A stretch of 60,789 nt of DNA, the filler included, from Globobulimina sp. (taxonomy: Eukaryota), in NCBI GenBank assembly GCA_003354225.1. It is 12 parts of 12 records of this genome, joined end to end, with 100 filler letters (N's around TTAATTAATTAA, not from the genome) between each part and the next. Parts side by side here need not be neighbours in the genome. Positions count along the whole stretch, not along the records: positions 50,758 to 55,723 come from PIVH01000805.1; positions 55,824 to 60,789 come from PIVH01000806.1; 10 more parts are not named here. One strand, written 5' to 3'. Position numbers and translations under genes: made by a program. The notes below the pieces were generated by a model, which saw only the letters and a list, made by a program, of their open reading frames with translations, was not told the origin of the DNA and did not search any database. This document shows positions 887 to 60,789 of the stretch, piece by piece (position 1 is the stretch's first letter; every line of letters starts with the position of its first letter).

Positions 887-935
887 GATATTTACAACTA
901 ACAAAACGCACACTGATACACTGTCACTGATACAT

Positions 936-2096: not shown

Positions 2097-2168
2097 TGTT
2101 AGCGTTAATTTCAGCTTGCCATTAATTTGAAACACGAAATTTAAAAGATGTTTTTACTGCAAATCAAA

Positions 2169-2234
2169 CAGAAGAAACACTCACCAAATCAAACCAAAAC
2201 CATTCAGAAGAAACACTCAAAGGAGAAACACTCA
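2169..2234. promoter_or_regulatory. Triple direct repeat AGAAACACTCA in a divergent intergenic region
   Basis: CAGAAGAAACACTCA at 2169-2183 and 2205-2219, core AGAAACACTCA again at 2224-2234, between ATGs at 2096 (-) and 2266 (+). The repeat is seen; a regulatory role is inferred. Confidence 0.4.
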
Positions 2235-2265
2235 ACAATTTTATTTGTTATATTTATATATATTT

Positions 2266-3825: not shown

Positions 3826-3997
3826 TGTTTATGATTAATGGCTTGTTGAAGCATTTCCGCTTTCCAAGAATATGTGTGCTGATTAGTTTGTTAAACAATA
3901 TTTAAATTAATAGTGCGCTTGCAGTTCATTCCAAAAAAAAAAAATATATATTTGATATTATATTCTTTTTCAAAAACTTTAAAGTTGAGGCATCAGA

Positions 3998-4669
3998 ATG
4001 TTGAATGTGCGGCAAAAGAATACTGCAAATAATCGTGGTAAATTGGCTCAAGCGAGATTAGTGGGTCAGGTACAAACCCCTTCGTTGTCCACTTGTAAAA
4101 AATGTGGCTTACGTGAGTTATAATTATTTGATTAGATCATTTTTATGATTACTTAGTGATTAAATACTATTAAATAAGATGGACATTTCCAATTCCAATG
4201 CAGAAATGTTATTGCTTCGGATTTTAATATCGGTGAAATTACATCAACGTCATCATTATCGACAGATTCATCCAAAACTAATCAGGAAAAACATAAAAAT
4301 AAAAATAAAAAAAAAATGAATAAGAAAAAGTTCAAAGAAATGAGAAAGAAAAGAAAAAATAAAAGAAAACGCAAACACAAATATGAATCATCGGATATTG
4401 ATAGCGATTCTTCCTCCTCATCAGAGTCAGACTCATCATCTTCGTCATCCTCATCATCCTCATCATCCTCTACCTCATCATCGAGTGATTCAAGTGATGA
4501 TAAAAGGAGAAGAAGACGGAAATCAATACGAAAACATAAACATAAACATAAACACAGAGCAAAGAGAAAACATAAGCATAGGAACAATGATAGCAGTGAG
4601 GAGTCAACATCACGATCAAGATCACGGACAAGGTCACGAAAAAAGAAGAGGCATTCCAAATATAAATGA
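3998..4669 (+). CDS. SREK1IP1: SREK1IP1/CXIP4-like CCHC zinc-knuckle, Lys/Ser/Arg-rich protein; intron 4113-4178
   Basis: Splicing gives CKKCGLHGHFQFQCRN followed by EITSTSS, then K-rich, poly-Ser and RS tracts. This matches the p18SRP pattern CKKCGYPGHLTFECRN...VSSTSS. Confidence 0.8.
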
Positions 4670-4785
4670 ATAATTGAAATGGATCGTTTTGGTGCAAGGC
4701 AAGGCAGGCTGTTATTTACCCAAAAGTGTTAATATCATTCATTTTATGTTAAAGTTTTTCTTGTAGTGAGCTAGTCTGCAGAGCC

Positions 4786-4980
4786 ATGTCAACCGAGCAG
4801 CCAGATTTACGAGCTCTGAAATCAGCGAGCTCGAGTCTGAGCACTCCAGATGTACCCACATCAACTACATTGATGAAAAACAGTTCAACAATATCTGTTC
4901 GTTTGGACACGTATCGTGGTTTAAACGCATTCGAAAGACGGCCATTCTCATGTTATGAAAAAGCAAAAATGTTTATTATA
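4786..4980 (+). CDS. 5' fragment of a gene, truncated by contig end
   Basis: ATG-initiated frame open to the contig end (MSTEQPDLRALKS...YEKAKMFII). Too short to assign. Confidence 0.5.
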
Positions 4981-5080
4981 NNNNNNNNNNNNNNNNNNNN
5001 NNNNNNNNNNNNNNNNNNNNNNNNTTAATTAATTAANNNNNNNNNNNNNNNNNNNNNNNNNNNNNNNNNNNNNNNNNNNN
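4981..5080. other. Artificial contig linker (44 N + TTAATTAATTAA + 44 N). Identical linkers at 10060-10159, 15138-15237, 20214-20313, 25290-25389, 30366-30465, 35441-35540, 40516-40615, 45588-45687, 50658-50757, 55724-55823
   Basis: Identical 100-nt structure with stops in all six frames. Flanking segment lengths never increase (4980, 4979, 4978, 4976, 4976, 4976, 4975, 4975, 4972, 4970, 4966, 4966). Confidence 0.99.
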
Positions 5081-8000
5081 AATATGATTTAGAAAAAGTA
5101 GGAAATAACACTGTTCCCAAACAGTTAGAGGCGACATATCAAGGTCTATATATCTGTTTTTTTTTTTAATATACTTTGAAATCGCACATATTTTATGCAT
5201 AAATTGCAGGAGTATCCGAGGAGATATTTCCTTTGGATCAGTTCAAACGAGAAACGAAATCCGATGCCAAAGAGCGGACTTTTAACTGTGCCCAGTTACC
5301 AAATATGAGCCAGGCCCTCGTGAAGAAATTCGCGTCCTTCAAATGGAAGCCCTTTGTGCTACGCTTCACTTTCCACAAACATGGCGGTAAGATCATCAAC
5401 ATCGAGCAATTGGCTATTAACTCGTATTACGATCAGTTCCCCCGTAACGTCAAGCGAGTCTACAGCGGCAAGTCCGGTGTCATGATCAACGACGAAGAGC
5501 AACGCGTGTCCTCCTTAGGCGAAATGAACATATATCAGAGCAAAAAGACCATCGTAATCTGTTGGAAATTCCCGCAAAATGCCGAGTTAGGCATCACGTT
5601 AACGTACCATTACAAGGTCCAAATCCCGATGTTGCATGAGATCAAATTCAAGCGTTTATTGGACTGTTGGCGCACCAACACCTTATTCGACCAAACCATG
5701 AGCAATCGCAGCATGAAAATTGTGCAATCTCGCATGTGGAAGACCGATACGAAGATGCCGACCATCAAAGACATCACACGCTATGATGCCGTGGCGAATG
5801 AGGCAGAGTATGGCGGCATGGACAAACGGGACGAATCTGATGAGGAATATTCTGGTTCGGAGGATGAGGATGATGACAAAGACGAAGAGAAGCACAGCAA
5901 ACCCGCAGCTAAAAAGGAAGAATGTATCCCCTGTCAAATGATATCGAGCAACAACGAACGACGCAAAAAACACCAAAGCGACACCGACGAGGACAGTGAC
6001 AGCGGCGGTATCCCGCAACCGGACAAAGTGCGACGCGATCGGTCGCAAAGCACGACGCAATTGGCGCAGATTGATAAATATCAGCATCTAAAGACGAAAA
6101 TATCCGACGCGGAGTGGGATTTGATGGACAAATTGGACGACAAGCAGCGCGAAACGAGCAATTTGATCAAACAAAAGCCAGTGTATGCGGCCGTCGCGGA
6201 GGCGCAGAGTGTGTGGAGTTTGTGGGTACGGCGCCACGCCCCGCACAAATTCAGGAAGGAGCTGTACAAATTAGTGTCGTTGACATTTATTCAAAGCATA
6301 ATCTCTGTGATGAAGAACCATTTATATGAACGCTATCAGCGGCGCAAAGAGAACAAACCGCTAATCATTGTGATATCGGACGAACGTGAAATGTACCAAG
6401 AGATATTTGCGTTGAATCACAGCGAAGATTACATCTCCGCGAACAGCAAATCGTTGTCGTACTTATTTGACGCGATCGGCGACGTGAAACGTATCGACAG
6501 CAAAGGCAATATCTACAGTATACACATCAACAAGTTACAGAAAGAAATCATAGACAAAGGCTACTACCACGAGTTCATATCGATGACCAGCGCGAAATTC
6601 AAAGAGACCTTGGTTCTGTTCACCCGGCCCAACGACGAAAGGAATAGTTTGTACATCTCGCACAATGGCTATATCAGCAAGATCTCATTGAAACTGCACG
6701 ACGAAGATTTGCATTATTTCCTGCCGCTCTTCATCCCCTTAAAAGTGGGCGATTGCGTCAACATCGAAGCCTTTTCATCGCCGGATAACGGCACCATTGT
6801 GGCCTTATGGCGCAACCCCGAACGCAACAACATTGTGTACCGGATCCGGTCGACGGAGAATGTCTATTACATCATGAACTATTACAAGTTGGTGAATCGC
6901 GCGCAACCCAAGGAATATTGGTACAAAAACGGCATAAAAACGAACATTACAAAGCACAGCGCCGTGTGGGACGACGTTAAATTGTGGAAGACGGAGAAGC
7001 CGAACGGCGATCCCTCGGACCCCTCGCATCCGTTACACGGCGTTATATTGGCCTTAGTGGAGAGCAGCAAACAGGCCATAGCCAGCATAGAATCGCAGTT
7101 GAAAGTGATGGCGAGGAAGGATAAGGCGAATCAGCTGGAATTGAAGAAGTTGACCATTCAGCACAAGCTGCAGAACACCGGCGCGATCTTTTTGTTTTAT
7201 CGCACGGTGGAGATGGTGGACAAAGGGGAGGACATTGTGCTGTTTGAGCAGCAGGAGGCGGAGCGCAAAGAGAATGAGCGGGAGGAGGAGGAGGAAGGGC
7301 CGTATCGCGCGTATAATGATAGCGAGGCGTCGGACGATGACACGGAGAGTCTGCAAGCCAGCAACGAGCGAGGCCTGAGCCATTTGATTAAGTTTTTGAA
7401 GCGGAATAAGCTGATTTGCAATGTGCAGAAATATAAACGTCCGCAGACTACGTCGTACGACGATTTCTGTGAGAAGGCCAAGGACATCTTGCGGCAGAAT
7501 AGCAACAATAAGGTGTATTTGTGCCATATGACGGAGCGGAAGAAGTATACGTTGGAGGAGGTGGATGGCGGCCTTCCGGAGGAAGCCATTGATATCGATA
7601 GTTTGGGCCACGGCGGCGACGAATATGAGGACGGATCGGGTGGAGAGGAGGATGAATGGCTGACATTTGAGCCAGAGGAAGATGACAAGCCGCAGCTGAA
7701 AAAGGAGGAGGCGGAGAAAAGAGTGGTATTGAAATCGACGTTTGAGTGCCAAATGGTGTACGAATTTGAAATGTGTTCGGTGCACAGTCCCGTATTGACT
7801 GTGGAGGATATCATGATTATGCAAAATGAGAAACGAAACTGGACGACGGAGGACCATAAACTATTGACACAATTCCATAACAACAACATCTGGAACAAAT
7901 TTGATTTATTAGACAAACAATTGATAAATCGGTTGAAAACGCGCTTGTTTCAAAACCATACCAATGTCGGCGACACGAATAAACTGAAATTGTTGGAGAA

Positions 8001-9591
8001 GAAATTCATTAAATTCACGGAAGCGGTGCCAAAAACGTTGAAGGAAAACAACATTAACAGCCCATTGACGCAATTTGTGATCGCTGGCGTGGAGGTCACG
8101 AGAAACGCGAAATTATTGCAAGAGTACATTGAGAAGTTTCGGCGATACAAGAAATCTGACGATGAGCAGATGTTGGACTATGACGGCGACGCAGAGATCA
8201 TCGAGTCCAATAGCGATAGAACTATGATCGTGGCCTATAACCCGATCCAAACCGTGGTGGTCACCTCTACGATGATCAAAGATGTGACCCATCCGATCCA
8301 TCTATACCGCGCCGCCTATGACGAGAAGTTTTACCCAAAGGACCAGATCACGCAATTGAACGCGGAATGGATGCAGACGCAAACCAAAAACGCCAACATC
8401 ATCAACGCGTTGTCGACGCTGCTGCGCTACAACAAGAAATATGAGATAATCTTAGTGCCTTCGTCCATCCATTTGGACGCCGAAAACTTCCTCAAATCGC
8501 GCTGCGAGATGGTAGCGCCCGAACATGAGTCGATTGCAGATTACCGGATCACGTTCCTGTACAAAGGCCTCTTGTACCGCTACGACAAGAAAAAGGCCAA
8601 GAAGTTCAAACAACAGTCTTTGTCCATCATCAAACAACAGACCGTGCACCATTTGGACGACTTGGACGACGACGACGAGAAGATCTTCGTGGACGAGATC
8701 AAGTTTTTGCTGCGGTTGTTGCACGACAACATTTCCGAGGAACAGCCGGACGCCATGGACCCCGACGAAGCAGTGTTCGACAAATCGCCCCGAACGCGCG
8801 AAGAGTCGCTGTCCACCACATTGCCGATGATCATCAGCTCGTTGACGTCGCAGCCCTCCTTCAATAATTACCCCTCCTTTTCCGCCACCGCCATGGACGT
8901 CGCCCCGCGTCGGCCGAGCACGAGGCGCAGATTACGCGGCAGCATCAAACGGAAGCACACGGACCGCATCTTCAGATGGCTCAACGTGGGCTGCGGCAGC
9001 TGCTTCTTGCACGAATCGAGCGGCCGGGCCAAGGAGATCGGGCCCAAAAAAGGCGCGGATTACGACAAGGAGTTCCCCAAACAATTGCAGCGGGCCATGT
9101 TTTTGTATTACATCGATTGCCGGGTGCCGTTCAATGAGGACATCATATCGCAAGAGAGCCAATGTGCGATCTGCAAACAGCTCATGATCGATCCGGCAGA
9201 TATTGGCAATCCGCAATGCATCCACATTTTCTGTAAGCTGTGCATCCAGCAATGGTACTTTGTCAATTATGCGTCCAACGCCAACAACGACAATCCGATG
9301 GGCGGCAACCACGGCGCGCAAAGGAGCAGCTGTCCGATTTGCAGGAGAGCCATCCGCGAAATCACAGTGCAGCCGAAGGTTATACCCAATATGAAGCGGG
9401 GTATTCCCACCACCATTTATCAGCAGATTATGGAGGAGAACCAGTCGCGCTTTTTGCGGCAGTATTTGGTGGATACGTATATGGCGGAACGTGAACGTGT
9501 ATTACAGGCTGAGAATTCCGATCAGAATTTGGGTGCCGCGATGGAGAACGATCCTCGACTCGGACATCGGTTGGCGGGCTATCGGGGATAG
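5081..9591 (+). CDS. 3' part of a very large protein with a C-terminal C3HC4 RING finger (putative E3 ligase); intron 5144-5209
   Basis: Open frame of more than 1450 aa with CAICKQLMIDP...CIHIFCKLCIQQW...CPICR near the C-terminus. An upstream exon joins in phase through a GT-AG intron. Confidence 0.85.
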
Positions 9592-10343
9592 TAATTAATT
9601 TGCAAAATATTTCTTTTATTTTATTTTAGTGTGTCTTGTGTGTGTCGCCTTTGCTTTTCTGGTTTTTCTCTCCTTTTTCTAATCGTATTTTTAAATTTAG
9701 TTATTTTAATTTTAGTTATCTCGAATCTCATTTTATTTTCGGAGTTTGAGCAACCTTTTTTTTTACAATTGATTCTTAAATAATGGTTGATAAAACTGCG
9801 CCATATGCAATTTATAAACGAGATGTGGTGCACATTTATCATTAATTCACACCGTTACTTAACTATCCATTGTTTATTATTTGTTGTCTCATTTTTATTT
9901 TATTTTATTTCATTTCATTTTGTTTGGGATTATAACTGATCTGCCCCTTTTTTCCTTTTTATTTGTTTTTCTCATAAATTTCATACATTTGTTGTTTTAT
10001 TGTTGGGGATATACAAAATGATCGAGATTCAAGCTCTCGGGGGAGGAACAAATATAGCTNNNNNNNNNNNNNNNNNNNNNNNNNNNNNNNNNNNNNNNNN
10101 NNNTTAATTAATTAANNNNNNNNNNNNNNNNNNNNNNNNNNNNNNNNNNNNNNNNNNNNTTCAAAATTAAAAGTGATTAAAACTTATATATTTAGACTAA
10201 TAATTATATTTGTATTGCACTCATACAATACAAGCATCAAAATTCAAAACTAAAACATCATTCAATTCAACAGTACAACAAAAAATAAAAATTAATTATT
10301 ACGTTACATAATTATAAACCAAAACATTTTTAATCAAAATGTA

Positions 10344-36008: not shown

Positions 36009-38860
36009 TCAATTTTGATGAATATTTTTATTTTGAATAAGATTAAGATTTTTATCATATTTTAATTGCATCAAATCAGCAATGGGAAACAAAGTTGGTC
36101 TTCCATGAGCACATTGAAATGGTAATTTACATTTCGACAATGCTGATAACAAATTTCTCATTTCTTTCTCATTCAATGCGTCACCAAACTTTATGGCAGA
36201 TCGACATGCTTTTGATGCCAAAACACGACGGACACATTTTGGAATATACGACTGGATCACATCAACATCCATTATACTGATATTATGCAGCAATTCGCGC
36301 AATTCATCCACAGATATTTTTGAACCATAAATCAACGGTGTTTGAAAAACCTTTATTTTACAATTATTCTTTGCATCATTCGAAGTTAAAATTTCATATT
36401 GAAATCCCCATTTTTTTATCCATGCACAGTTTTTATTCAATGCCTCAAACTCTTGATATTCAACAAATATCTCATACGGATCTGATAACTTTGTTGTTTG
36501 TATACGAAATGAATTTGGTCCCTTATCGCCACATAAAAATGAAGTTAATCTCTCAACTCTCACCCTTTCGTCCGCAGCATGTTGGTCCACCAATATTATC
36601 ACACCAATTCCAGTCTGCTTCTTCTTCAATTTTGTGATAATCCATTTCTTATCAATTTGGCCAATGCCAAATAATTTTAATAAACATAAATCTTTCTTGG
36701 ATATGACAATATCATTAGTACCAATATTATGTATCGGGATTTCTTTTTTTTCACTGTTATTACAATGGAGGCATTTCTCTCTCCATTCTTTTAAAATTGA
36801 TGACAATTTTATTTCACCTTCGATGATATCCATTATATGTTTTGTGTCATGGCACTTATTATTTGTCTCTCCCATTGCAGTGCCAGTTGTATTTGCGTCC
36901 AATCCTTTAAAATCTGGTAAGTTAAAACCAAACAAATGCTCTCTATTTGCATTCAGCAACACAGCATCCATCAAATCATTACTTTGCTGATTTGCAATGA
37001 TGACACTCTGACTCTCTTTGCTTGTGATTTTGTTTACGTTTTGCGGAATTGCTGGGAAATAATCATTGAAAAATGTATTTGTATTTGTTGATATTAGTTC
37101 ATCCAAATCATCATCAAAATATTCTGACACTAACTTCTGTTTTTTATGTCTATTCTCGTTATTTATAATTATATCTCCATTATCAATCTCAGACAACTTT
37201 CTTTTTTTCTTTTTCTTCCGTTGTACTGACCATAAATGTAATTCTCTTTGCTTTCTCTTCGTAATTTGCCATGGCGGTGACGGCGATTCTGAGACTAATG
37301 CAGGGTCAGAGGGTGATGTTGATGGCGTGGAAAGAACACTGCATTCATGTAATGGCGCTGTGAGTTCGTGTTCTTGCTCAATATCGATATCATTTCCTTT
37401 TGTTATGTCTTCGCATACTAATTTTTCTTCATTTTCCTGCAGTTCATCTCTTATAATATCGCCGCATGTGTTATTACCATTTACTTCAATGTCAATTATT
37501 TGAGAAAATGCATCCTTCCATTCATTCATCTGTGTTTTGTCAGTACTTTGTATCTCAAATAAATAAAACAAACATATCACAAAATCAAACTAAACAAATT
37601 TCAATGAAGGATACAGTTTATACGCCACGCACAATAATGTATATTGCAACATCTTTAAAACTTCCTCTTCATTTTTTATCAAAACGTGCAATTTTTTCGT
37701 ATCATTTTCCATCTTTGAACATATGATTAATTAACATTTTATTGCAAGAAAATACAACAAAAAGGGTCGATGTAGTAACATACCACAATATTTCGAGGGT
37801 TTGTTTCAATGAAAATGGCAAAAATGGGATATTTATGATGTTTGTTTGCTTTATGAGAATACCATGGAACTCTCGAATTAATGTTTGTATTCGAGGAAGA
37901 GTTCATATTTAAATTCATAACATCATCATATTTAAAACATTTATTTATTTTCATTAACAAATCGATAATATTTTGATAAATTTTATTGTGTTGAATACAA
38001 CGTTTATTTAAGAATATAAATTGCCAATTTTTCTTATGATATAAGCGTTGAGCATCGCATATGACGCCCCATATTCTGACATTCTCATCAAAATTAATAT
38101 TATTTCTATTTTGAGAGAAGTCATCGCTGTCAAAAGTATAAAGATATTTAATTAAATGCGGATCGATGAGTGAGGACAGCACAAATTTCGGCGATGAATA
38201 TCCTTTTGATTTACATATAACTTTATTGACTTTTTTATCACAGTGATTTAAAATAAACTGTATATCGTAATGTGCGACTGCCCATTTTATCAAATTTGAT
38301 TGTAACGATATGGCTGTTTTTTTGAATGTTTTTTTATCATTTTTTGCGCCAAATATTTCTTTTCTGCGTATTTGAAGATTGAAAAATATATCTTTTACGA
38401 TAATAATAGTTCCATTCGTTTTATTTTCTAAATATGAATGACTTTTTACTGTTTTGATGTTGTTTTGTATTGAGATTAATTTTGAGCCACGCATCAATTT
38501 ACTGCATGTCTTATGATTATATCTGTTTTTTGAGATAATTTGTAACATTGATATTTGAGATAAGGAACATAATGCCTCGCCTTTATAACCTAAAGACGTG
38601 ATACCACGCATTGTATCATTCACTTGTTTTGATGTATGGTGTCGTTGACCAATGTTTTGCATATTTTCAAATGTTATGCCATCGCCGTTATCACAAATGG
38701 TTAAACAAAATGTGTCTAAATTGATGCTAATTTCAATGCTTGTGGCATGTGCATCTAATGCATTTGCTATTAATTCATCAACAATGCTGTTAAAATCAGT
38801 TAAAATAAATGATGATCGCATTAAAGATCGAGTTGATTCACAAAGCTTGTGGATTTGCAT
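36009..38860 (-). CDS. MLH3: MutL homologue MLH3; intron(s) between about 37560 and 37785
   Basis: GHKL ATPase ELIANALDAHAT...DNGDGI...TSK...GYKGEAL. C-terminal GQIDKKWII, DQHAADER, ACRSAIKFGD and FQCAHGRPT are MLH3-type signatures. Confidence 0.92.
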
Positions 38861-38953
38861 AACGTTTGTAAAGCCTCCGTTAAATGAACATCGTCTAAAA
38901 AGATAAAAAACTGGCACTTCAGAAATAAACATCATAAACCAAATTTTTAAAGC

Positions 38954-40270
38954 ATGTCAACAAGTTGGAATCTACAAACAAAAGTATCAGATTTAAAGTT
39001 CACAGTACCTCCTCATGTTAAACCAATCCGTGACAAAATATTAAAATTTGTGGAAGAAGAATGTTATCCAGTTGAAAAAAACAAAAAAACGCGACTTATG
39101 GCCATCGTTAAATTGCAGCAAAAAGCAAAGGAATTGGGGTTATGGGCACTAGGACATCCCAAAGAGATTGGCGGCCAAGGAATGCCATTTAGAGACTATA
39201 TTTATATCAATGAAGTTATAAAATCCCCCATATAGCTACCGAAATACACCACACACACAACCAACTTATAGGTACAGGGCCGTTGTGAATTGGCGCAAGT
39301 CGCACTTGGTACCCACAGCTTGCAGGATTCATTAATGCTACACAACCACGCTTCGCCTGCAATTAAACACAAGTACTTGACTGACATTGTGGCAGCTCGG
39401 ATATACCCATCCTTTGCCATGACTGAGCCAGGCATTGTGTCCTCCGATCCAACCGGCATCAAAACGAGAGCTGAGTTGAGCACAGACGGCACGGAATGGA
39501 TCATCAACGGACATAAATGGTGGACCAGCAATGCGGCTGTAGCGGCTTTTACAACTTGTATGTGTCGAACTGAATTTGATGCCAAACTATCCATATATTT
39601 GTCATTCAGTATCATATTGGTCCCAACGCACAGCAAAGGATACAAAATAGTGCGCTCCACATCGGTGTTAGGCACACATTATGTGCCGCACAATGAGGTT
39701 ATTTATGACAATGTGCGGGTGCCCTATGCCAACATTATCGGTAAACGAGGACATGGTTTCTTGATTGCGCAGGAACGGTTAGGTCCAGGTCGCATATTTC
39801 ATTGTATGCGGTGGTTGGGGCAAATGCAGAGAGCGTTTGATTTGATGTGTGGCCGTTTGGTGCAGCGGAAAGTGCGCGGCGGTAAGAAATTGTTGGGAGA
39901 TTTGCAGTTAATGCAAAAGCATGTGTTTGATAGTTACTGTGATATTTCAGCACATCGATTGATGACTATGTTTGCTGCGGAAAAAATGGATTCTGGCAGT
40001 TATGCGAGGATTGAATTGGCTGCGTGTAAAGCTAATGGCGCACTCGCTTTGTGCCGGGTTATGGACAGAGCTGTGCAGGTTTTTGGTGCCAAGGGCTTGA
40101 CGGACGATACTCCGTTGGGAGAGATGTACCGCCATGCACGAGCTGCGCGGTTTTATGATGGACCGGATGAGGTGCATATGGCCACTGTGGGGAGGTTAAT
40201 GAACAGGGAGTATAAAAAAGGGAATAGATATGATTTTAGTGCTGGCACATTTGTAAAATCAAAAATATAA
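38954..40270 (+). CDS. Acyl-CoA dehydrogenase (stand-alone ACAD10/11-like) with a PTS1-like SKI end; intron 39215-39271
   Basis: KAKELGLW, FAMTEP...SSDPT, WIINGHKWWTS, GFLIAQERLGPGRIFHCMRWLG and RFYDGPDEVH. The 57-nt phase-0 intron removes a TAG. Confidence 0.95.
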
Positions 40271-45388: not shown

Positions 45389-45687
45389 TGTAAAGAAAGT
45401 TTTTTAGTGTCGAGCACGAGCCAAGTCAGCCAACAAGAATATGAAGACACAACAAAGTCTTTTTTTAAAGGAGATGGGAAAACAAGGCTTTGTAACTCGT
45501 GTTAATTAAAGTCGGGGGCTAGCATCTTTAATGGTCTGGAAAAATAAATAAACTGCACAAAAGAAGGTGCAGAGACCAAAAATCATANNNNNNNNNNNNN
45601 NNNNNNNNNNNNNNNNNNNNNNNNNNNNNNNTTAATTAATTAANNNNNNNNNNNNNNNNNNNNNNNNNNNNNNNNNNNNNNNNNNNN

Positions 45688-48600
45688 ATTCCTCATTGCC
45701 GTCACTATACTCATTCTCGTCCATCGCCAACGCCTTAAAATTTTCCTCCAACTCTCTCCATATCCATTTGGGTAACCATTTCGGTCGTTTCTTTGGACGA
45801 TTTCGCGCAAACTTTCTATACATTTTCCATGGAATATGCGCATGTCGATGCAAATGAAAATGTCGATGATGATGCGGATGGCCAAAGCGAAATCGATGTC
45901 GATTATGCGGCGGCGGCCTATGTAGTTTGTGCCGCATCATTTTCATTTTCATTTTCTTCCGCAATTTCTTAATCTTTCGCTTATATCGTTTCAACGCATT
46001 CTTCATCTTTTTATTCACTTTGTTCTCGCCGGTAATCACCGTCGTTTCCTTGTGAATTTTTTTCTTCTCTCTCTTGATCCGTTTCTTCTCCGCGCGGATC
46101 AATTTCTTCTTCATTTTATTCAATTTCTTCATCCGTTTCAATTTGGCTTTTTTGATCTTTTTCAGTTTCTTTTTCCGCCGTTTCTTCAACTCTTGCAATA
46201 TTTGTTTCCTTTTTTTGACCCGTCGCGCCTTACCAGGATGGCACACATGTTTCCGGTGCAACTTTGCACCGCCAACAAACTCTAAAAACTCACATAAACA
46301 CAATTTGCGGCCAAATATGTTCATGCATTTCTTTTTTAGTTTGCGTGAGGATAAGGTGACTACGGAAGAAATCTCGTCCCATTTACTATCATCTAACCAA
46401 TCCATATCATATTCATCCGTCACTTCGTTGGTCACCACCCACGAAGACTCACTGTCGTCAATGAATGAATCCATAGTATCATCCTCCTCCTCCTCCTCCG
46501 ACACTGCATCTTCGTCGTCGTCGTAATAATATTCATATTCCATATCGCCATCGTCATCATAATAATACTCACCATCATCTATTATATAATAATCGCCTTC
46601 TTCACCTACCACTGCACCAAATGTATCATCATCGTCAGATTCAGATTCATATTCATATTGATAGTCAGAATCATAATCATAATCATCAAAGTCCGCCAAA
46701 TCGTCACCAAATTCATCCTGTAATGCAGCATATTGCCCATGTAATATATCCGGGGTTAATCGGAAATGTTTATGTGCACCGACTTTGACATTCACTTTAA
46801 ATCCACCATCACCACTAAATGTAGCACAGACTTGTGACGATTGTAAGGTTCGGCATTTTTGTATTTTATCACCATCGTACACTTTAGAGGCATGGTACGG
46901 TGTTAATGCGTCATATTCATTGCGTACATCCTGCATCAAATCTAATCTATGAATCTCATCCCAATCACCATCATTCTTAAATTCTAGCACCATATCACTT
47001 AATTCATCATTGATAATCTCGCTAAAATCTGCCTCCTCGTAATAATGTTGATTGTAATATTGTTCGTAATCATCATAATCCTCATAATATCCATCATCCT
47101 CATCCTCATATTCATCATAGTCATCATAATCATAGTCATCATCGTACTCATCTTCGTAGTAATCATCATAGTCATAGTCATCGTTGTATTCATCGTTGTA
47201 TTCATCGTCATATTCATCGTCATATTCATCGTCATATTCATCGTCATATTCATTATATAGTTCCATATCAATCAACCTTCGTCGTTGATATTCATCCTCG
47301 TCATGGCGTCGATGTTTCCTTTTATGAAAAGTATGCTCCATTAACTTCATTTTAACACCTTCTTCGTTGGGTTCCTTGAGGAGAAAATCATTCATATCCT
47401 TCATTGTACGCATATCTCGCCCTTCATCATCATCATCATCCACACTATGTTTCAATGTTCCATCCCTATTAAAATCCGTATCCGTATCACTATCCATATC
47501 ATCATCATCGTCTCCATCACTGTCCCATTCGTCAAATCTATCCGCATCACCGTAATAATTCCCTTCCCGACTTCCTTCAGAATAGTCGCTATATTTCTCT
47601 TTTAAATGCCGCGCTTTTTCATCACTTTCATAATATCCATACTCGTCATCTAATCTTATCACATCATCATCGTACATGGCATTAAATGAACGCGATCGCG
47701 ATTCTATGTCTTGTATGGCCTGTTCTGCGGCATCCTCATCATCATAAGAGTCATAATCCGCATATCCGTCATTATTTTGCCCGTAATCGTAATATGTATC
47801 GTCTTCATCATCATCATCGCCGTCCATATTGTAATAATACTCATCGTAACCATATAAATCATAATATGCATTGTCAATCTCCTGCGTACTGGCGGCCTCA
47901 AAGGCGATGTGATAGCCACCATCGGTGGAAGAGACACATAATTTATGATCTAAGCCGGGAATGGCAACACTGCATTTGGTCGCAGCTTCGATCGAGTTCC
48001 AATCTTTATCATCATGGAAATTAAAGCCACGATCATCGAAATAATACACATAATCACCATAGGCATCGTAACCAATATCTAATATATCAGTGAATGCTTC
48101 TTGTTCGTCCGTGGTTAAACCATCCATTTCCATTACATCCTCGTCTTCGAGTCTGGCGGAGGCCTCTTTGGCATCGCAATTTAGACATTTAAAGCCAGCT
48201 AAATCCATCAATTCATTTTGATGCAATTTGAATCCCAATGCATCGCCGTAATCGACTGCGTATAATATTTTTTTTTTAAGTTTAATTTGACAAAAAAATA
48301 TCATTTCCAGTTTCAAACTGAAACACGGGACACAATTGGCGAGTAATTGCATGTGTTATAAATACAAAAAAATATAAAAAACTAAACATTTTTCAGCATC
48401 AAATACGTTGTTATTATCAAAATATTTATAGCCATAATTATAAGTCCACCATTCATCCAAACTGTCAATATTTGTATCCTCATCGTAATAATTTGAATAA
48501 AAATCATCATCTAAATAAATTTCGTTATAATAATCACCGTAATATTCAGCATCGTAATCACCAAAATAATCTTCATAATCTTCATCATAATCATCGAAAT

Positions 48601-49812
48601 CGCCAAAATAATCACCGTAATATTCATCATCATCCTCATAATCCTCATAATACTCATCGTCACCTTCATAATCTTCATAATCTTCATAATCTCCATACTC
48701 CTCCATGGCACTATTTATATCCTGCTCCTCTTCTTCACCCCGTTCTCGGCCATCAATTTGTTCATCAAAATCCATATCATCATAGAAAATATGCTCATCA
48801 TTATCCTCAAACATAGCATTAAAATTAGCCGGCACAGCTTCAGTATTTGCTTTTTGTCGCAAGAATCGTGAGTGAGGTAAGCCCATTTTAACTTGCATGG
48901 TATGGTGGTATGGATTGTATACAACACACATTCTCATATTTGTAGAATATCCACATTTTCGAACACCACGATTTGAGGCTGTATATGTATGGAGAAGTTG
49001 TATGGGATATGTTGCATCAACGCGCAAATTCGCAACAAATATATTATGTATACAGTACAAAACACACCATATTTATGATAAGTATGCATTAATTCATCAT
49101 ATAAATCGTCATTCTGCAACAGAGAATGCAAGAAATCTTGTACCAAATCAATATTATCCCAATCATAATCATTATTGAAATACAAGGCTTTATTAATTAA
49201 TGTATTGTACTTATTGTCAGCGGATTGCTTGGCTGCAAAGACGTTAGCCATATCGCCATAAAACCATTTTAAATCATCGTGATTGTCATTGTTGAAACTG
49301 AATTTGAAGCCATCATTGTGGTTCCAATCCACACACAATTTCTTGAATATGCCAGGTATGGTTTTGGTGCATGACCGAGCTGAGCCAGATAATGGATTGG
49401 CGACTGAGTTGGCCTCATAATACTCAGACTCGTAGGCATAGGCATTATTATCGTAATATTTGCTGAAATCTAATTCATTTAAGGATTGTTGTAACTCGTC
49501 ATCTAATAACTCGTCGTATACTTCATCTTCATCTAAGAGCGATCTTTTATGTTCATTGTTAAAATCATTATATTGGTGAGAAACCATATATTCTTCATTC
49601 CAATCTGCCTGGTTTTCTAAATTAAAATTGAAAATAAAGTCATTTAGATATAATATATCGTTGTTGGATAGGACTTGTTCTGCTGATGCTATTTTTATAT
49701 AGTGGTGTTTTGAAAATGTATATATAAAATGACAGGATTATTATATTTAACTGCTTGTAAACGAATAAAACAATGCAGCAACGCATGTCAAAAGGAGTGT
49801 GAAATCATTCAT
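45688..49812 (-). CDS. Giant secreted Asp/Tyr/Glu-rich protein with repeated two-Cys modules and a Lys/Arg/His-rich block, 3'-truncated; at least 4 introns
   Basis: ATG 49812 gives signal peptide MNDFTLLLTCVAALFYSFTS(TSA) via two short introns. Intron 48979-49067 is in phase; the junction near 48260-48390 is unresolved. Long YDDE/DYEDY tracts; the frame is open to the contig end. Confidence 0.85.
47175..47253. repeat. 12-bp tandem repeat encoding (Y-D/N-D-E)n
   Basis: TATTCATCGTCA / TATTCATCGTTG units in tandem. Confidence 0.9.
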
Positions 49813-55536: not shown

Positions 55537-55824
55537 ACAGAACTTTCCACTGTAAACCAGACGTCCTGTTTACCTTCTAAACTTTTACATTTGCGTTTGA
55601 ACCGATGTAGTACGGTTTACACTGACATTTTGTATCTCCATTTCCCAACAAAAATAAAAATACAATTACAAGAATTGTTGAATCAACTCATGTGGTCTGG
55701 TATACCCAGGAGAAATATTTGTCNNNNNNNNNNNNNNNNNNNNNNNNNNNNNNNNNNNNNNNNNNNNTTAATTAATTAANNNNNNNNNNNNNNNNNNNNN
55801 NNNNNNNNNNNNNNNNNNNNNNNC

Positions 55825-58800
55825 CATCGTGATTGGTTACAAAGAAATCGAGCCAGAAAATTAATGGAAGATGCTGGTTTGGCTAATCATCAGGGACCTT
55901 GCGGTATTGAAGAACTTGGAAAAATACAAGCTGTGCTTTCAAACTATCAAATCAAACTATATTCTAAAGACTCAATGAATGCAAAAGTTTTTTCAGGACC
56001 TGAGACAGATTCTACAAATGTATTAAACCTTTACCATTACTTCAACCATTATTGTGTGATTACCTCAATGGCAGCATTTGTTGGTCGTGCATTTTGGTGT
56101 GAAGCATGTGAAAAGGGTTACGAGCACAAAGAGAAGCATAAATGTGAAGCAAATTGTCGATGTTGTTTGAGAAAGGACGCCCCCTGTAAGTTTGTGGAAT
56201 GGATTGAATGTAAAGATTGTTCAAGATTGTTTGTCAGTCAGGAATGTTACGAAAATCACAAAAGAGAAGATAGACAGAACGGAACTAAAAGACAGAAAAT
56301 TAAAAGTGTGTGCAAGATCATGCAAAAATGCAAACAGTGTGGGAAAACAATTTATGACAGCAAAAAACATGTTTGTGGTCAAACTTATTGCAACAACTGC
56401 AAAGATTACGCGCAGGAAAATCATTTGTGTTACATCAAGAAAGTTGTTGAATCAGACAAGGAAAAGAAGAAAGATCCAAGTTTTATTTTCTTTGATTTCG
56501 AAACAACACAAGATACAGATATTGGTGAATCAGATTATGGTAAAATATTTCAACACAAAGTCAATTGCTGTGTCTCACTGAAAACATGCAGTAAGTGCAA
56601 AAAGGATATGGAAGCGCCATGTTCGAGTTGTGGAGACAGCAAACAAAAACATCAAACTTTTTTAGGGCAAAATTGTCTTGTGGAATTTTGTGAGTATTTG
56701 TTCAGTGAAAAAAATGTTGGTTGTACAGCGATCGCGCATAATGCGAAAGGATTCGATGCACAGTTTCTCCTTAAACATATGTATGATCAAGCTGTTGTAC
56801 CTCAAGTATTGCATCGCGGATTACAAATTATTCAACTTGAATTTGAAGGAATCAGAGTTATTGACAGTCTTAATTTTCTTCCTATGGCTTTGAGTGCCAT
56901 TCCAAAAGCGTTTGGTTTACAAGTGGCGAAAGGATACTTTCCACATAAATTCAACAAACAAGAAAATTGGAATTATGAAGGAGAACTTCCAGACGCTTAT
57001 TTCTATGGACCAGGAGATATGAAACCTGAGGATCGTGACATATTTTACAAATGGCACATTAACAAAGATAGAGAAATGAAAAAGTCTGGTTTACTGTTCA
57101 AACTTCAAACAGAACTTCCCAAGTATTGCAAAATGGATGTCAAAGTTTTGGCTGAAGGTAGCATGGAATTTCGTGACTCATTCATCAAAATTTCAGGAGT
57201 CGATCCTTTGAAATCCTGTACAACTATCGCATCAGCTTGCAGTTTAGTATTCAGAAGAAATTTTGTGATTCCTGAAACAATAGGTATTGTGCCTGACAAA
57301 GGATATCGCAAACATGAAAGACAAAGTATCAAAGCAATCAAGTTTCTGAAATGGTATACTCATATCCATGATTTATCATCTCAAGGGAAGTACATTCAAC
57401 ATGCTCGCAATCAAGGCGAGTTTTCTGTTGGAAAATACAAAGTTGATGGACTTTTGTGCACACTTGAAGGAGAAAATCTGAAGAAAATTTTTGAATTCAA
57501 TGGTTGCGCATTCCATGGATGTAAGAAATGTTTCAGAGATCCTCATACAGTATTACCTTCTGGATTACAAGCAAACGAAGCATACGAACGGACTGTGCAG
57601 AGGCGCATGTATCTGGAACGTCAAGGATACGAAGTAGAAGAAATATGGGAATGTCAAGCTGATGAGATGTTAAAACAAGATCCAGAAATGCAAGATTTCT
57701 TTCGTTCTGTGGATATTCAAGAACCAATGGATCCAAGAGAAGCATTTTATGGTGGAAGGACAAATGCCACAAGATTGTATTACAAAATTATGAGAGGAGA
57801 AAAACTTTCTTATATCGATATTTGCAGTCTCTATCCATGGGTTAGCAAGTGTGGCGAATTTCCCATTGGACATCCAATTATTATCACTGATAACTTCAAA
57901 CCAGTGACAAAAGAAAGTCAGCCATACAGAGGTCTCATCAAATGTCGTGTCAAACCACCAAGAGGTCTGTTACATCCTATTTTACCATTACGATCAGGAA
58001 ACAAACTATGTTTTCCTCTATGTCGAACATGCACAGATGAGCGCAGCTCTGAAACTTGTCAACATTCTGAAGAGGAAAGAGCATTTACAGGATCATGGTG
58101 CACTCTTGAATTATACAAAGCTCTTGAATTAGGATACGAAGTTTTGGAAATATTTGAAGTGTGGCATTACAGTAAATGGGCAAAGTATGATGGAGTGGAT
58201 CCAGAAAGTGGACTATTTACCCAATACATCAACACATTTCTGAAAATCAAACAAGAAGCTTCTGGTTGGCCATCATGGGCAAAATCGGACGAAGAAAAGG
58301 AAAAATATATCAAAGATTATTACCAAGCAGAAGGTATTACTTTGGATCCTGAAAAGATTGTGTTGAACAAAGGATTGAGGCAAATAGCTAAACTTTGTCT
58401 GAACAGTTTTTGGGGAAAATTTGGTCAGAGAAACAATTTGTCAAAAACAACTTTTTTCAATGATCCAGCTCCATACTTTGACACAGTTTGTGATCCAACA
58501 AACGAAATCGCTTCGGTGAAAATTCTCAACGATAAACTTGTGTCGGTGACTTATCAAAAAGCTGAGGAATTCATTGAATCATTGCCACACACCAGTCCTG
58601 TTATCGCTGCTTACACAACAGCTCAAGCAAGATTAAAGTTGTACACCTACATTGAAAAACTGCAAGATCGAGTTTGTTATTTTGACACTGATTCTGTCAT
58701 TTATGTTACAAGACCCAGTGACACATACAAACCATCAACAGGTGATTTCTTGGGTGAAATGACAGATGAATTGAAAGAGTATGGTGATGGAAGTTACATT

Positions 58801-59124
58801 ACTGAATTTGTATCTGGTGGTCCAAAACAATATGGAATGAGAATATGGTCCACAAAAGAGAGAAAAATCAAGGAAGTGGTGAAAATTCGAGGTTTCACAA
58901 TAAACAGTACAACAGCCAACAAATTGAACTTTCAGACACTCAGAAATATGGTCAAACTCTTTGTTGAAAATGGTGCGAAGGAATTGGTGAATGTTATAAT
59001 TGACAAAATTGAAAGAACACCAGAACGGAACATTGTGACAAGAACAATGAAGAAAACTTACAGAGTAGTTTATGATAAACGTGTAGTTTTGTCTGATGGA
59101 AATACTTTACCTTTTGGTTATTGA
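55825..59124 (+). CDS. polB: Protein-primed family B DNA polymerase (pPolB), 5'-truncated
   Basis: Exo I FFDFETTQ, Exo II AHNAKGFD, Exo III YCKMDV; Pol A YIDICSLYP, Pol B KLCLNSFWGKFGQ, Pol C YFDTDSVIY; N-terminal Cys clusters. Frame open from the contig start. Confidence 0.97.
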   Translation, partial: HRDWLQRNRARKLMEDAGLANHQGPCGIEELGKIQAVLSNYQIKLYSKDSMNAKVFSGPETDSTNVLNLYHYFNHYCVITSMAAFVGRAFWCEACEKGYEHKEKHKCEANCRCCLRKDAPCKFVEWIECKDCSRLFVSQECYENHKREDRQNGTKRQKIKSVCKIMQKCKQCGKTIYDSKKHVCGQTYCNNCKDYAQENHLCYIKKVVESDKEKKKDPSFIFFDFETTQDTDIGESDYGKIFQHKVNCCVSLKTCSKCKKDMEAPCSSCGDSKQKHQTFLGQNCLVEFCEYLFSEKNVGCTAIAHNAKGFDAQFLLKHMYDQAVVPQVLHRGLQIIQLEFEGIRVIDSLNFLPMALSAIPKAFGLQVAKGYFPHKFNKQENWNYEGELPDAYFYGPGDMKPEDRDIFYKWHINKDREMKKSGLLFKLQTELPKYCKMDVKVLAEGSMEFRDSFIKISGVDPLKSCTTIASACSLVFRRNFVIPETIGIVPDKGYRKHERQSIKAIKFLKWYTHIHDLSSQGKYIQHARNQGEFSVGKYKVDGLLCTLEGENLKKIFEFNGCAFHGCKKCFRDPHTVLPSGLQANEAYERTVQRRMYLERQGYEVEEIWECQADEMLKQDPEMQDFFRSVDIQEPMDPREAFYGGRTNATRLYYKIMRGEKLSYIDICSLYPWVSKCGEFPIGHPIIITDNFKPVTKESQPYRGLIKCRVKPPRGLLHPILPLRSGNKLCFPLCRTCTDERSSETCQHSEEERAFTGSWCTLELYKALELGYEVLEIFEVWHYSKWAKYDGVDPESGLFTQYINTFLKIKQEASGWPSWAKSDEEKEKYIKDYYQAEGITLDPEKIVLNKGLRQIAKLCLNSFWGKFGQRNNLSKTTFFNDPAPYFDTVCDPTNEIASVKILNDKLVSVTYQKAEEFIESLPHTSPVIAAYTTAQARLKLYTYIEKLQDRVCYFDTDSVIYVTRPSDTYKPSTGDFLGEMTDELKEYGDGSYITEFVSGGPKQYGMRIWSTKERKIKEVVKIRGFTINSTTANKLNFQTLRNMVKLFVENGAKELVNVIIDKIERTPERNIVTRTMKKTYRVVYDKRVVLSDGNTLPFGY

Positions 59125-59186
59125 TTGTTCAATAAAATGTAATATCTGTATAAGAATAAACAAAACATTTAAAAATTAAAATAATA

Positions 59187-59708
59187 ATGGAATCGATTAA
59201 AATTGCTCAAATATGCAAATCTGACCCTGTTATAAGAAAGGTCTTTTGCGGAGTTTTACCTAGCGATTGTCTTCCTAAACGTTCCGTCCTTCCTGCGGCA
59301 TACATATGCAATACAGATCCAAAACATAAGTCGGGAACTCATTGGATTTCTATCTATATAGATCATGAGGGTTGTGGCGACTATTTTGATTCTTATGGAA
59401 GGCCCCCATTAGAAATGTTTAAACGTTTTATGAACGATAATTGTATCGAATGGAATTACTCTGGGAAGAGACTGCAAGCCCCGTTAACCTCAGTATGTGG
59501 CCAATACTGTATCTGTTTTCTTAATAAAAGATGTCGCAATAACAAAATGCAAAACATTTTGAGCATGTTCAGCTCAAATTTGTTCCGGAATGATGAAACA
59601 GTTGTTAAATTTGTCAACGAACACTACGATGTCAACACTAAAATTATTGAAGTCGAATTCATCGTCAACCAAATATCGAAAGCGCTCAAAGAAGCGGAAA
59701 TAAAATGA
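59187..59708 (+). CDS. Adenain-like cysteine (capsid maturation) protease
   Basis: NTDPKHKSGTHW...YFDSYG...LQAPLTSVCGQYC, carrying the catalytic His, Asp, Gln and Cys. Confidence 0.93.
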   Translation: MESIKIAQICKSDPVIRKVFCGVLPSDCLPKRSVLPAAYICNTDPKHKSGTHWISIYIDHEGCGDYFDSYGRPPLEMFKRFMNDNCIEWNYSGKRLQAPLTSVCGQYCICFLNKRCRNNKMQNILSMFSSNLFRNDETVVKFVNEHYDVNTKIIEVEFIVNQISKALKEAEIK

Positions 59709-59836
59709 GAAGCTATGAGAAAACGTTTTGTGATACGATTTGTTTTAATCAATTTTATTTTTTGTAAAACATTTTTATATTATAAACATAAAAAACTTTT
59801 CATTGGATGTCCCTAATCACACTAACCACATATAAG

Positions 59837-60789
59837 TTATACACTGTAATCAAAAAATATGTTTCTATTCCTATCGATACTTACAAGATTATCGAATTCT
59901 GCATATACAATCATTTCTATACCACCAGCTGGCACATCGTCTCCAAATTGGATGTCGATCGATGTGCTACCTTCACGAAGCAACTCCCAATGTGACCCAT
60001 CTTGTTCATCTGGAGTAAGATCAAAAACAAACAGACAATGACTGTTCTTAAAATCTTTCATTGTTATGCAATTTCCTGTATCTTCTTTAGAATTACCCAA
60101 GCTTTCGAATAACTGGACATAGGGTCTGACATACTGATTTTGCCCAAAATTCATTTCTAATGGATTTCTTGGATAAACAACACCGCCAGCTGTTACTTTA
60201 GCATTGGTGACAGAGTAATTGCCAAAAACAAAAGGAGACTTTTTGTAATTACCATAGTAAGCATCGGAATCAACAAAACCGATAACCAAACGTCTAGGTA
60301 TTTGACCATTAAACATTGTGTTATTAGGTGTGGATCGTCGACCTGGTGCTACATGTGCCTTTCTCATTACAACACGCCGAATGGGATATTTAGCTGTATA
60401 TCGTTGAAGAGCAGTTTCCAATCCCATTTGTACAGATCTTAAAACTTCGACCTTACGAATATGCCAGGAAACATCCATAATTTCTAGTTTGTAGGCTTCA
60501 GGAGCATCCGCAAAACAGAGTAGAGCAAAGGGGTCAGGGTTCCTGTGCAATTCGAGTTGAATTTCTGTATTGTCCAACATGAGACGATCCGACATGAAGA
60601 GATCCCCATGAATAGGTGCCATCATTTCAACTTCATAATTAGTTGGATCTTTAAAAAACCGTTCCCGTCGTTTTACAAAACCCTGATTACCATTCACATT
60701 CACATTCTCACCATCAGCGACAGGTTTGTCTTTGTAATAGAGCGCAGCTCCGAGCTGTGACTGTTTTGCTCCCAAATCATAATTTAGCT
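59837..60789 (-). CDS. Polinton major capsid protein (double jelly-roll, PY), 5'-truncated
   Basis: LNY...K.SQL, PIHGDLF...L.L.RN...F.L, AKYPIRRV, GQIPRRLVIGFV...G...KSPF.F, LFVFDLTPD and IVYAEFDN...ID..RN motifs; adjacent to the protease and pPolB. Confidence 0.88.
   Translation of the reverse strand, partial: LNYDLGAKQSQLGAALYYKDKPVADGENVNVNGNQGFVKRRERFFKDPTNYEVEMMAPIHGDLFMSDRLMLDNTEIQLELHRNPDPFALLCFADAPEAYKLEIMDVSWHIRKVEVLRSVQMGLETALQRYTAKYPIRRVVMRKAHVAPGRRSTPNNTMFNGQIPRRLVIGFVDSDAYYGNYKKSPFVFGNYSVTNAKVTAGGVVYPRNPLEMNFGQNQYVRPYVQLFESLGNSKEDTGNCITMKDFKNSHCLFVFDLTPDEQDGSHWELLREGSTSIDIQFGDDVPAGGIEMIVYAEFDNLVSIDRNRNIFFDYSV

Follow-up and report, generated by a model that had tools for sequence, protein, structure and literature searches.

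The last contig of the window (the whole 60,789-nt stretch of DNA analyzed here) very probably represents part of a virus-like dsDNA element of the Maverick/Polinton type (class Polintoviricetes; alias adintoviruses). The fragment spans the entire 4966-nt contig (55824..60789, no strand assigned), is about 96% coding, and carries three genes characteristic of Polintons: a protein-primed PolB (pPolB), a double-jelly-roll capsid protein (the C-terminal 316 of ~442 aa), and an adenain-like protease. Genes for an integrase, an A32/FtsK-type ATPase, and a minor (penton) capsid protein were absent from this contig, which is cut at both ends, and a search of the whole window (E<0.01) gave no further Polinton gene. 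Likewise, inverted repeats of at least 30 nt were found neither in the contig, which includes neither end of the element, nor in the contigs of its relatives. The contig does not reach into any DNA flanking the element either. Polintons are flanked by a 6-bp target-site duplication. Because this duplication, the TIRs, the integrase, the ATPase, and the minor capsid are not on the contig, Polinton membership rests on three genes together with the gene content of relatives; by the definition in the accessible text of PMC5499653, Polintons encode a retrovirus-like (rve) integrase.

The original prediction of an intact-looking core held insofar as three ORFs without internal stops lie at this place; it did not extend to completeness, because two of the three genes, pPolB and capsid, are truncated by the contig ends. 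Nonetheless, 1588 stop-free codons in DNA of 36% GC argue for a copy that was recently active or exogenous rather than an old, decaying insertion.

The pPolB gene (55825..59124, + strand) is an open frame of 1099 codons that matches PF03175 at E 1.2e-47; its first ATG, at 55864, is internal. Because the frame stays open to the very start of the contig and the alignment to the best relative (P0001; 47% identity over 1093 residues) begins at residue 202 and extends to residue 1291 of that protein, about 200 N-terminal amino acids are missing. Every conserved (catalytic) position of the alignment is kept in the window sequence, and we take these positions to be Exo I-III, Pol A-C, and KxY. Within the polymerase lies a Vsr-like (very-short-patch-repair) nuclease domain (57292..57744, + strand). 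A 25-sequence profile (A3) matches three structures of E. coli Vsr (1VSR, 1CW0, and 1ODG) with an E-value of 1.7e-5, and three relatives are annotated as Vsr endonuclease by JGI; Pfam alone returned only PF18741 at E 0.09. An OTU domain was not detected by Pfam (E<=0.1) in the N-termini of six of six full-length relatives, the window pPolB itself lacking the N-terminal ~200 aa. The alignment may show some resemblance to a Cys/His motif.

Between pPolB and the protease, an AT-rich spacer of 62 nt (59125..59186, + strand) carries AATAAA at 59131-59136 and 59155-59160, exactly where two such hexamers had been placed (at about 59131 and 59155, after polB). The spacer may possibly hold poly(A) signals of pPolB and/or a promoter of the protease, the two copies being weak evidence of such signals because the hexamer is common in the window (244 occurrences on both strands, versus 162 expected from shuffles). 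The complete 173-aa adenain-like clan-CE cysteine protease (59187..59708, + strand) matches PF00770 at E 7.9e-5, with 22.8 bits against a cut-off of 21.3. As a single sequence it matched ASFV S273R at E 0.008, and a 9-sequence profile matched S273R and adenain at E 5e-9 to 5e-8; residues H52, D68, Q97, and C104 are invariant in all nine sequences. The protease and capsid genes converge, with a second AT-rich spacer of 128 nt (59709..59836, no strand assigned) between their 3' ends; its inverted matches to the spacer that precedes the protease are weak and reflect AT content.

The major capsid protein is represented by its C-terminal 316 aa (59837..60787, - strand), a double jelly roll whose frame runs off the contig end; compared with a 442-aa relative (P0241) to which it is 89% identical, the N-terminal ~126 aa lie beyond that end. 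Its score against PF21738 (25.4 bits) is under the Pfam gathering cut-off of 27. The AlphaFold model (pLDDT 83, pTM 0.79) matched PBCV-1 Vp54, SGIV MCP, Sputnik and mavirus MCP, ASFV p72, and adenovirus hexon with a Foldseek probability of 1.00. In BFVD, the best match was a Cotesia bracovirus (wasp) protein (31% identity, E 2e-12), and adintovirus/MELD capsids were also matched. The best 120 capsid relatives listed, at up to 89% identity, are metagenome proteins; none carries a eukaryote name and two carry the names of bacterial MAGs. Identity is only 25-31% to the capsids of relatives L056, L045, L034, L025, and L028.

The polymerase, whose exonuclease and polymerase motifs are conserved and which contains a Vsr-type nuclease, would use protein priming to replicate a linear genome; an icosahedral capsid would be formed by the double-jelly-roll protein and matured by the adenain-like protease. 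Every longer relative encodes an rve integrase, an A32-type packaging ATPase, and a minor capsid protein, and these are expected on the missing parts of the element, where they would permit integration into the host chromosome.

Phylogenies of pPolB, rooted on two giant-virus-bin polymerases, were built with FastTree (136 rows) and as a quick IQ-TREE tree (41 rows that we picked from those 136). In both, the window pPolB falls with support of 100 in a 12-row clade of environmental sequences without organism names. Its sister clade (support 92-96) includes insects, and both are nested in a larger group (98) where echinoderm, mollusc, and cnidarian names occur. Among the 120 pPolB matches listed, all 22 that carry an organism name are animals (38-42% identity), and the seven best (42-48%) carry none. 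The Atlas clusters that come closest are those of arthropods and molluscs. By tblastn, the window capsid matches (E 2e-37) the capsid encoded at a locus that has a pPolB sister to one from a hoverfly. As judged from these trees, the element's clade is so far known solely from environmental contigs and is nested in animal-associated diversity. The phylogenetic check thus agreed with the prediction that the proteins would resemble the animal Maverick type more than algal Polinton-like viruses. The particular resemblance to nematode elements fared less evenly: no nematode is among the 120 pPolB matches listed, but a Vsr insert is reported for one marine nematode Polinton in the available portion of PMC10748475. 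The assignment to a Polinton/Maverick gene set was borne out by the relatives, four of which (L056, L034, L008, and L085) are complete, with pPolB, A32 ATPase, rve(+chromo) integrase, capsid, and protease. The best 120 capsid relatives listed and the entire pPolB clade sit on contigs of at most ~45 kb from metagenomes or unnamed assemblies.

The element was also described as lying in a protist-like assembly, and it is indeed co-assembled with protist-like contigs but physically unlinked to them, because the window consists of separate contigs joined by artificial spacers. The spacer, N44-TTAATTAATTAA-N44, occurs in 11 copies, so that the window comprises 12 unrelated contigs ranging from 4980 down to 4966 nt, and contigs that adjoin in it are not genome neighbors. 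One copy (55724..55823, no strand) divides the Polinton-type contig from the preceding unrelated contig, and position 55824 is merely the first base past it. The other 11 contigs are AT-rich with long, intron-poor ORFs; one was checked by homology and is rhizarian/foraminifer-like, the best named matches of its tested gene being Reticulomyxa (41%), Amorphochlora, and Plasmodiophora. Below, these 11 are termed host contigs. The Polinton contig is a mild compositional outlier of the 12. Its raw tetranucleotide correlation to the host contigs is the lowest (0.79-0.89, versus ~0.90-0.97 among host contigs), its mean z-score correlation is 0.24 versus 0.31-0.44 for each host contig, and its CpG (0.67), TpA (0.56), and GpC (0.91, versus 1.06-1.39) ratios are the lowest of all. 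Its GC content is within the 27-37% of the host contigs, its RSCU correlation (0.68) inside their leave-one-out range (0.60-0.95), and its NCG-codon use (8.4%) inside the host ORF range (6.5-37%). Run X1 contains 0.79 of the element's words and 28 of 30 bins of one host contig at a word depth of ~5; element and host thus appear roughly equally represented in X1, a weak comparison with one host contig, and the run data did not tell the two apart.

What carries the element is a question on which no reading reaches an even chance. Somewhat plausibly, it would be a multi-copy endogenous Maverick of a co-sampled small animal, whether prey, epibiont, or laboratory carry-over. Repeats of this kind would assemble even where the rest of the animal genome was too thinly covered, and the nesting of pPolB in animal-named sequences, the arthropod and mollusc Atlas clusters, the wasp bracovirus match, and the outlying composition all point this way, as does the Vsr insert, which the accessible part of PMC10748475 gives as a hallmark of Polinton polymerases from marine molluscs and a marine nematode. 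Against an animal, no named animal exceeds 42% among the pPolB matches listed and none appears in the best 120 listed capsid matches, and none of the 11 other contigs is animal-like, as judged by composition except for the one contig tested by homology. Intact ORFs on a host-sized contig would moreover demand many near-identical copies or much animal DNA.

Somewhat doubtfully, the carrier could instead be a foraminifer-like protist, with an animal-type Maverick integrated in or infecting the rhizarian that supplied most of the window contigs. Co-assembly with contigs of which the one gene tested is best matched, among named sequences, by rhizarians, the GC, RSCU, and NCG-codon values within host ranges, the roughly similar (if weak) representation in X1, and the lack of a named animal in the pPolB clade or the best 120 listed capsid matches are consistent with this carrier; protist-infecting Maverick relatives, the Gosseviruses, are described in the available text of bioRxiv 10.64898/2026.06.19.733378. 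Weighing against a foraminifer are the lack of a physical link to the protist contigs, the tetranucleotide and dinucleotide departures, and a literature that, in the portions available, limits capsids of this type almost wholly to animals: all carriers are metazoan save red-algal cases and one Discosea in Bellas 2023 (PMC10120064), and virion proteins are restricted to animals and their close unicellular relatives in Starrett 2021 (PMC8502044). In the accessible part of the Bellas supplement, three foraminiferal assemblies are listed, one with six capsid genes and two with blank entries, and one Reticulomyxa capsid sequence there seemed, by eye only, unlike the window capsid. It is a tentative suggestion that the environmental clade as a whole is made up of Mavericks of the animal type (with Vsr-pPolB, adenain, and a hexon-like capsid) living in or infecting foraminifera.

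It is rather unlikely that the carrier is neither of these and that the DNA belonged to free virions, to episomes, or to an element carried by some other protist in the sample. Such an origin would fit the metagenomic or unnamed source of the best 120 listed capsid relatives and of the entire pPolB clade, the three unbroken ORFs, and the mis-binning of relatives L085 and L086 in bacterial MAGs. However, a replicating virus is usually deep enough to assemble whole rather than as a 5-kb piece, IMG/VR relatives are few (seven pPolB loci, the best at 40%, and one capsid locus at 27%), and the L085 polymerase is frameshifted, like decaying integrated copies. Finally, because the protease lies on the strand opposite to the capsid gene whereas capsid then protease share a strand in eight of eight relatives with both (L025, L028, L029, L034, L045, L048, L056, and L085), the contig could hold an assembly error or a real inversion; a partial artefact of low-coverage assembly (host word depth ~5), with the protease segment misoriented or copies chimerically joined, would be compatible with any of the carriers above but is improbable given clean intergenic spacers at both junctions, ORFs all complete to their stops, 0.79 of the contig's words in Logan's independent contigs of X1, and a segment without a convincing flanking repeat.

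If the carrier is a foraminifer, the element would be among very few animal-type Maverick/adintovirus capsid modules outside animals and their closest unicellular kin, and a sizeable clade known only from metagenomes would gain an identified host. Should that clade's Mavericks live in foraminifera, the virus group would extend to Rhizaria, and the exchange of polymerases across phyla that has been proposed for Polintons of molluscs and nematodes would have a concrete route in the marine benthos. More generally, assigning hosts to Maverick fragments in fragmented, non-axenic protist assemblies calls for depth or junction evidence.

Among known systems, mavirus, other virophages, and adenoviruses share the capsid fold and protease clan with the element, and mavirus has a pPolB and an rve integrase; the match is at the structural level only (10-16% identity), and they belong to another family. 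Gosseviruses (GKS1-type, protist-infecting Polintoviricetes) and algal Polinton-like viruses are likewise small aquatic dsDNA viruses with a double-jelly-roll capsid and protease, some with pPolB and integrase, and are abundant in metagenomes, as are relatives of the window capsid; they differ in that the window pPolB and capsid find animal-type rather than algal relatives. Algal Polinton-like viruses have a PLV-type capsid and usually lack pPolB and integrase, according to the available portion of PMC5499653. An algal Polinton-like virus (Aquintoviricetes) was rejected because pPolB is present and the capsid's relatives adjoin pPolB and rve integrase genes.

Closer likenesses are found in two groups. 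The "pPolB2" Polintons of marine molluscs and the marine nematode Trissonchulus latispiculum carry a Vsr insert, as described in the accessible text of Jeong et al. 2023 (PMC10748475), and the window element shares with them a protein-primed PolB with a Vsr-type nuclease insert, molluscs among the named pPolB relatives, and relatives with capsid, protease, ATPase, and integrase. It differs in having only 40-42% identity to named mollusc polymerases and in forming a separate environmental clade, in trees that do not include that paper's sequences. Adintoviruses, or group 1 Maverick-Polintons, whose hosts are animals, carry an N-terminal OTU domain in PolB that non-adintovirus MELD viruses lack, in the available text of Starrett et al. 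2021 (PMC8502044), and no Pfam OTU was found in the six relatives examined here; the protist-like co-assembled contigs and the protease inverted relative to the capsid set the window element apart from them. Shared with this group, as portrayed in the accessible portions of PMC8502044 and bioRxiv 10.64898/2026.06.19.733378, are the adenain-like protease, pPolB, and hexon-like double-jelly-roll capsid, as well as relatives with rve integrase and FtsK/A32 ATPase and structural matches of the window capsid to the "Drosophila-associated adintovirus 3" capsid and a "MELD virus" protein.

The last contig of the window carries a fragment of a genuine Maverick/Polinton element with a Vsr-type polymerase, and its three genes look functional. 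An artificial spacer that recurs 11 times (44 N, TTAATTAATTAA, 44 N; 4981-5080, 10060-10159, and so on to 55724-55823) splits the window into 12 contigs ordered by length, from 4980 to 4966 nt, and the element occupies exactly the last of these (55824-60789, 4966 nt). Because the spacers are artificial, any apparent neighbourhood across them is non-biological. The original prediction of an intact-looking core in a protist-like assembly is thus to be read in two parts: the contig shares with the others only the data behind the assembly, and spacers part it from them; and the genes are real, but they lie on a fragment in which both pPolB and capsid are cut by the contig ends and from which integrase and ATPase are absent. 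Three ORFs fill ~96% of the contig. Neither this contig nor the rest of the window encodes an integrase, ATPase, or minor capsid protein, and the element contig has neither terminal repeats nor flank. Inverted repeats of 30 nt or more, terminal or internal, were absent from the element contig and from the 16 relatives' contigs searched, and neither Rfam nor a tRNA search matched anything in the window.

The protein-primed family-B polymerase, pPolB (55825-59124, plus strand; 1099 codons; PF03175, E 1.2e-47), is open up to the first base of the contig, and from its residue 7 it aligns with residues 202-1291 of its best relative, the protein P0001, at 47% identity. The protein therefore lacks some 200 residues at its N-terminus, and the ATG at 55864 is an internal one. 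All invariant or near-invariant positions of an 18-sequence alignment are kept in the window pPolB; we take these to be Exo I-III, Pol A, B, and C, and KxY. Between the exonuclease and polymerase halves lies a Vsr-like insert (57292-57744), and a 25-sequence profile of this insert matches Escherichia coli Vsr endonuclease structures (E 1.7e-5). A Pfam scan of the insert found no Vsr domain and only PF18741 at E 0.09; no OTU domain was found by Pfam in the six relatives scanned. In many of the mollusc-type relatives (P0010, P0014-P0016, P0021, P0023, and others), Pfam places C2H2 zinc fingers at the N-terminus, and the window's own pPolB clade is without them in precomputed Pfam annotation.

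Downstream, a complete clan-CE cysteine protease of 173 aa is encoded on the plus strand (59187-59708; PF00770, 22.8 bits, cut-off 21.3). The single sequence matches African swine fever virus (ASFV) S273R at E 0.008, and a profile of nine protease sequences matches both S273R and adenain (E 5e-9 to 5e-8); H52, D68, Q97, and C104 are invariant in 9/9 sequences. The AATAAA hexamer predicted after pPolB is found exactly where it had been placed, but the hexamer occurs 244 times in the window, which makes these copies weak evidence.

The third gene, on the minus strand, is that of a major capsid protein (59837-60787); its C-terminal 316 aa lie on the contig, and the frame continues past the contig end. 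Its relative P0241, a protein of 442 aa, is 89% identical. PF21738 scores slightly below its gathering score, and a capsid sequence profile compared with PDB sequences returned chance matches to XPA only. An AlphaFold model built from 39 sequences (pLDDT 83, pTM 0.79) matches double-jelly-roll capsids with probability 1.00, including PBCV-1 Vp54, iridovirus MCP, Sputnik MCP, mavirus MCP, ASFV p72, and adenovirus hexon; its matches in a viral structure library include a protein of Cotesia bracovirus (31% identical across 152 columns) as well as adintovirus/MELD capsids. Among the best 120 capsid matches listed (44-89% identity), none has a eukaryote name, two are named after bacterial MAGs, and no contig that carries one is longer than ~41 kb. 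The closest clusters in the Atlas consist of proteins from arthropods and molluscs, 10-17% of which carry PF21738, and the window capsid matches that of the metagenome locus L034 (tblastn E 2e-37), a locus whose polymerase has a hoverfly sequence as its sister. By this match and these clusters, the capsid groups with the animal type.

Scans of viral and metagenome contigs with single proteins found no relative, whereas alignment-based scans did. The longer metagenome relatives carry the complete Maverick/Polinton gene set: loci L056 and L034 each encode pPolB, an A32-type ATPase, an rve integrase that has a chromodomain, capsid, and protease, and an integrase and ATPase are also present in a third locus, L008. 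A 9.1-kb locus filed under a bacterial MAG, L085, carries a frameshifted pPolB, ATPase, integrase, two small ORFs, capsid, and protease, all in one direction; its polymerase is in four frame-shifted pieces, and its ATPase, integrase, capsid, and protease are intact. L085 (positions 1-9110) and a further Maverick-type contig, L086, sit in public bacterial bins, a Cytophagales MAG and a SUP05 assembly, and are mis-binned eukaryotic-virus DNA. In all eight relatives with both genes (L025, L028, L029, L034, L045, L048, L056, and L085), capsid is followed by protease on the same strand; in the element, the protease (59187-59708) is convergent with the capsid (59837-60787) and co-directional with the polymerase. 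Either ~0.6 kb has been inverted in the element itself, or the assembly is in error here. A search for repeats flanking the protease gene yielded inverted matches that are AT-driven, none of them convincing.

Resemblance to animal-type elements, as first proposed, is borne out by pPolB phylogeny, in which the window sequence is nested among animal-named sequences. Organism names are attached to 22 of the 120 pPolB matches listed, and all 22 are animals at 38-42% identity (echinoderms, bivalves, beetles, a hoverfly, and an octocoral); the seven best matches listed (42-48%) are without organism name. A FastTree phylogeny of 136 rows (the window, 120 matches, and 15 locus ORFs) places the window in a 12-row clade in which every row is without organism name (support 100), and the same clade appears in a quick IQ-TREE analysis of 41 rows picked to represent each clade, the other 95 being omitted. 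This clade is sister to an insect-containing clade (support 92-96), and both fall within a group with echinoderm, mollusc, and cnidarian names (98); two giant-virus-bin polymerases form the outgroup.

The remaining contigs encode ordinary eukaryotic proteins (SPRY, BTB, EF-hand, MutL, acyl-CoA dehydrogenase, and 5-phosphatase) in long, mostly uninterrupted ORFs of AT-rich DNA. For the 5-phosphatase, the best named matches come from Reticulomyxa filosa (41%), Amorphochlora, and Plasmodiophora, and matches without a name reach 59%, which points to a rhizarian, foraminifer-like source; the homology test covers this one contig, with which the others are grouped by composition only. Contig 2 (5081-10059) stands apart in base composition and codon usage (GC 46%, GC3 0.68, RSCU r 0.04 versus the other contigs), but an origin in another organism was not upheld, its tetranucleotide z-scores (mean r 0.36) resembling host-host values. 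It carries a 1462-aa ORF with a RING finger at the C-terminus, and an Atlas search with this GC-rich ORF gave no usable match. Another contig (45688-50657) encodes extremely acidic, D/E/Y-rich low-complexity proteins on the minus strand (ORFs 45632-48352, 48356-48937, and 48934-49587), one of which combines a long tail rich in K/R with a His-rich segment; none of them was assigned to a family. A MutL/PMS-type mismatch-repair gene lies in two minus-strand ORFs ~150 nt apart (36009-37589 and 37739-38956), probably split by a short intron, among the few intron signs in these contigs. At the end of one host contig (45430-45587), word depth in sequencing run X1 is ~270 versus ~5 elsewhere on the contig, and several loose ends occur at 45476-45529; the contig was probably cut short by a high-copy repeat.

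As to the carrier, the candidate sources lie close together: a co-sampled animal is slightly favoured, at less than even odds, and the foraminifer-like protist is somewhat less likely. Starrett et al. 2021 (PMC8502044) found adintovirus virion proteins only in animals and in unicellular organisms closely related to them. The element's GC content (36%) falls inside the host range, and its RSCU correlation (r 0.68 versus 0.60-0.95 for host contigs, leave-one-out) and NCG-codon use (8.4% versus 6.5-37% per host ORF) are compatible with this host, although neither measure discriminates between element and host contigs. Run X1 likewise contains both, with a word share of 0.79 for the element and 28/30 bins of the above host contig covered at word depth ~5. 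Against this, the element is the outlier among the 12 contigs, with the lowest raw tetranucleotide correlation to the host contigs (r 0.79-0.89; host-host ~0.90-0.97), the lowest mean z-score correlation (0.24; others 0.31-0.44), and the lowest CpG, TpA, and GpC ratios, although a mobile element or virus may deviate like this, integrated or otherwise. Runs X3 and X4, which share X1's sample label, have an element word share of 0.00, but this says nothing on host association because the host contig is nearly absent there too (1/30 bins each). X2, a marine metagenome, has an element share of 0.06, which is no evidence of habitat, and 2/30 host-contig bins in scraps of 18-19 nt; no RNA runs were listed as containing element words. 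The supplementary table of Bellas et al. (PMC10120064) has entries for three assemblies from foraminifera, giving 6 capsid genes for one and a blank for each of the other two; a literature search for Polinton and Foraminifera returned nothing relevant by title or abstract. Another protist, or free particles, would be about as likely a source as the foraminifer-like protist, or slightly less so. According to a 2026 preprint (10.64898/2026.06.19.733378), Gosseviruses are relatives inside Polintoviricetes that infect protists.

Whatever its carrier, the element belongs to a metagenome-only clade nested within animal-associated diversity, and it adds a member to an already known kind. According to Jeong et al. 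2023 (PMC10748475), a Vsr insert is the common mark of the "pPolB2" polymerase of Polintons from marine molluscs and one marine nematode, and a Vsr-type polymerase insert is common to those Polintons and the element described here.
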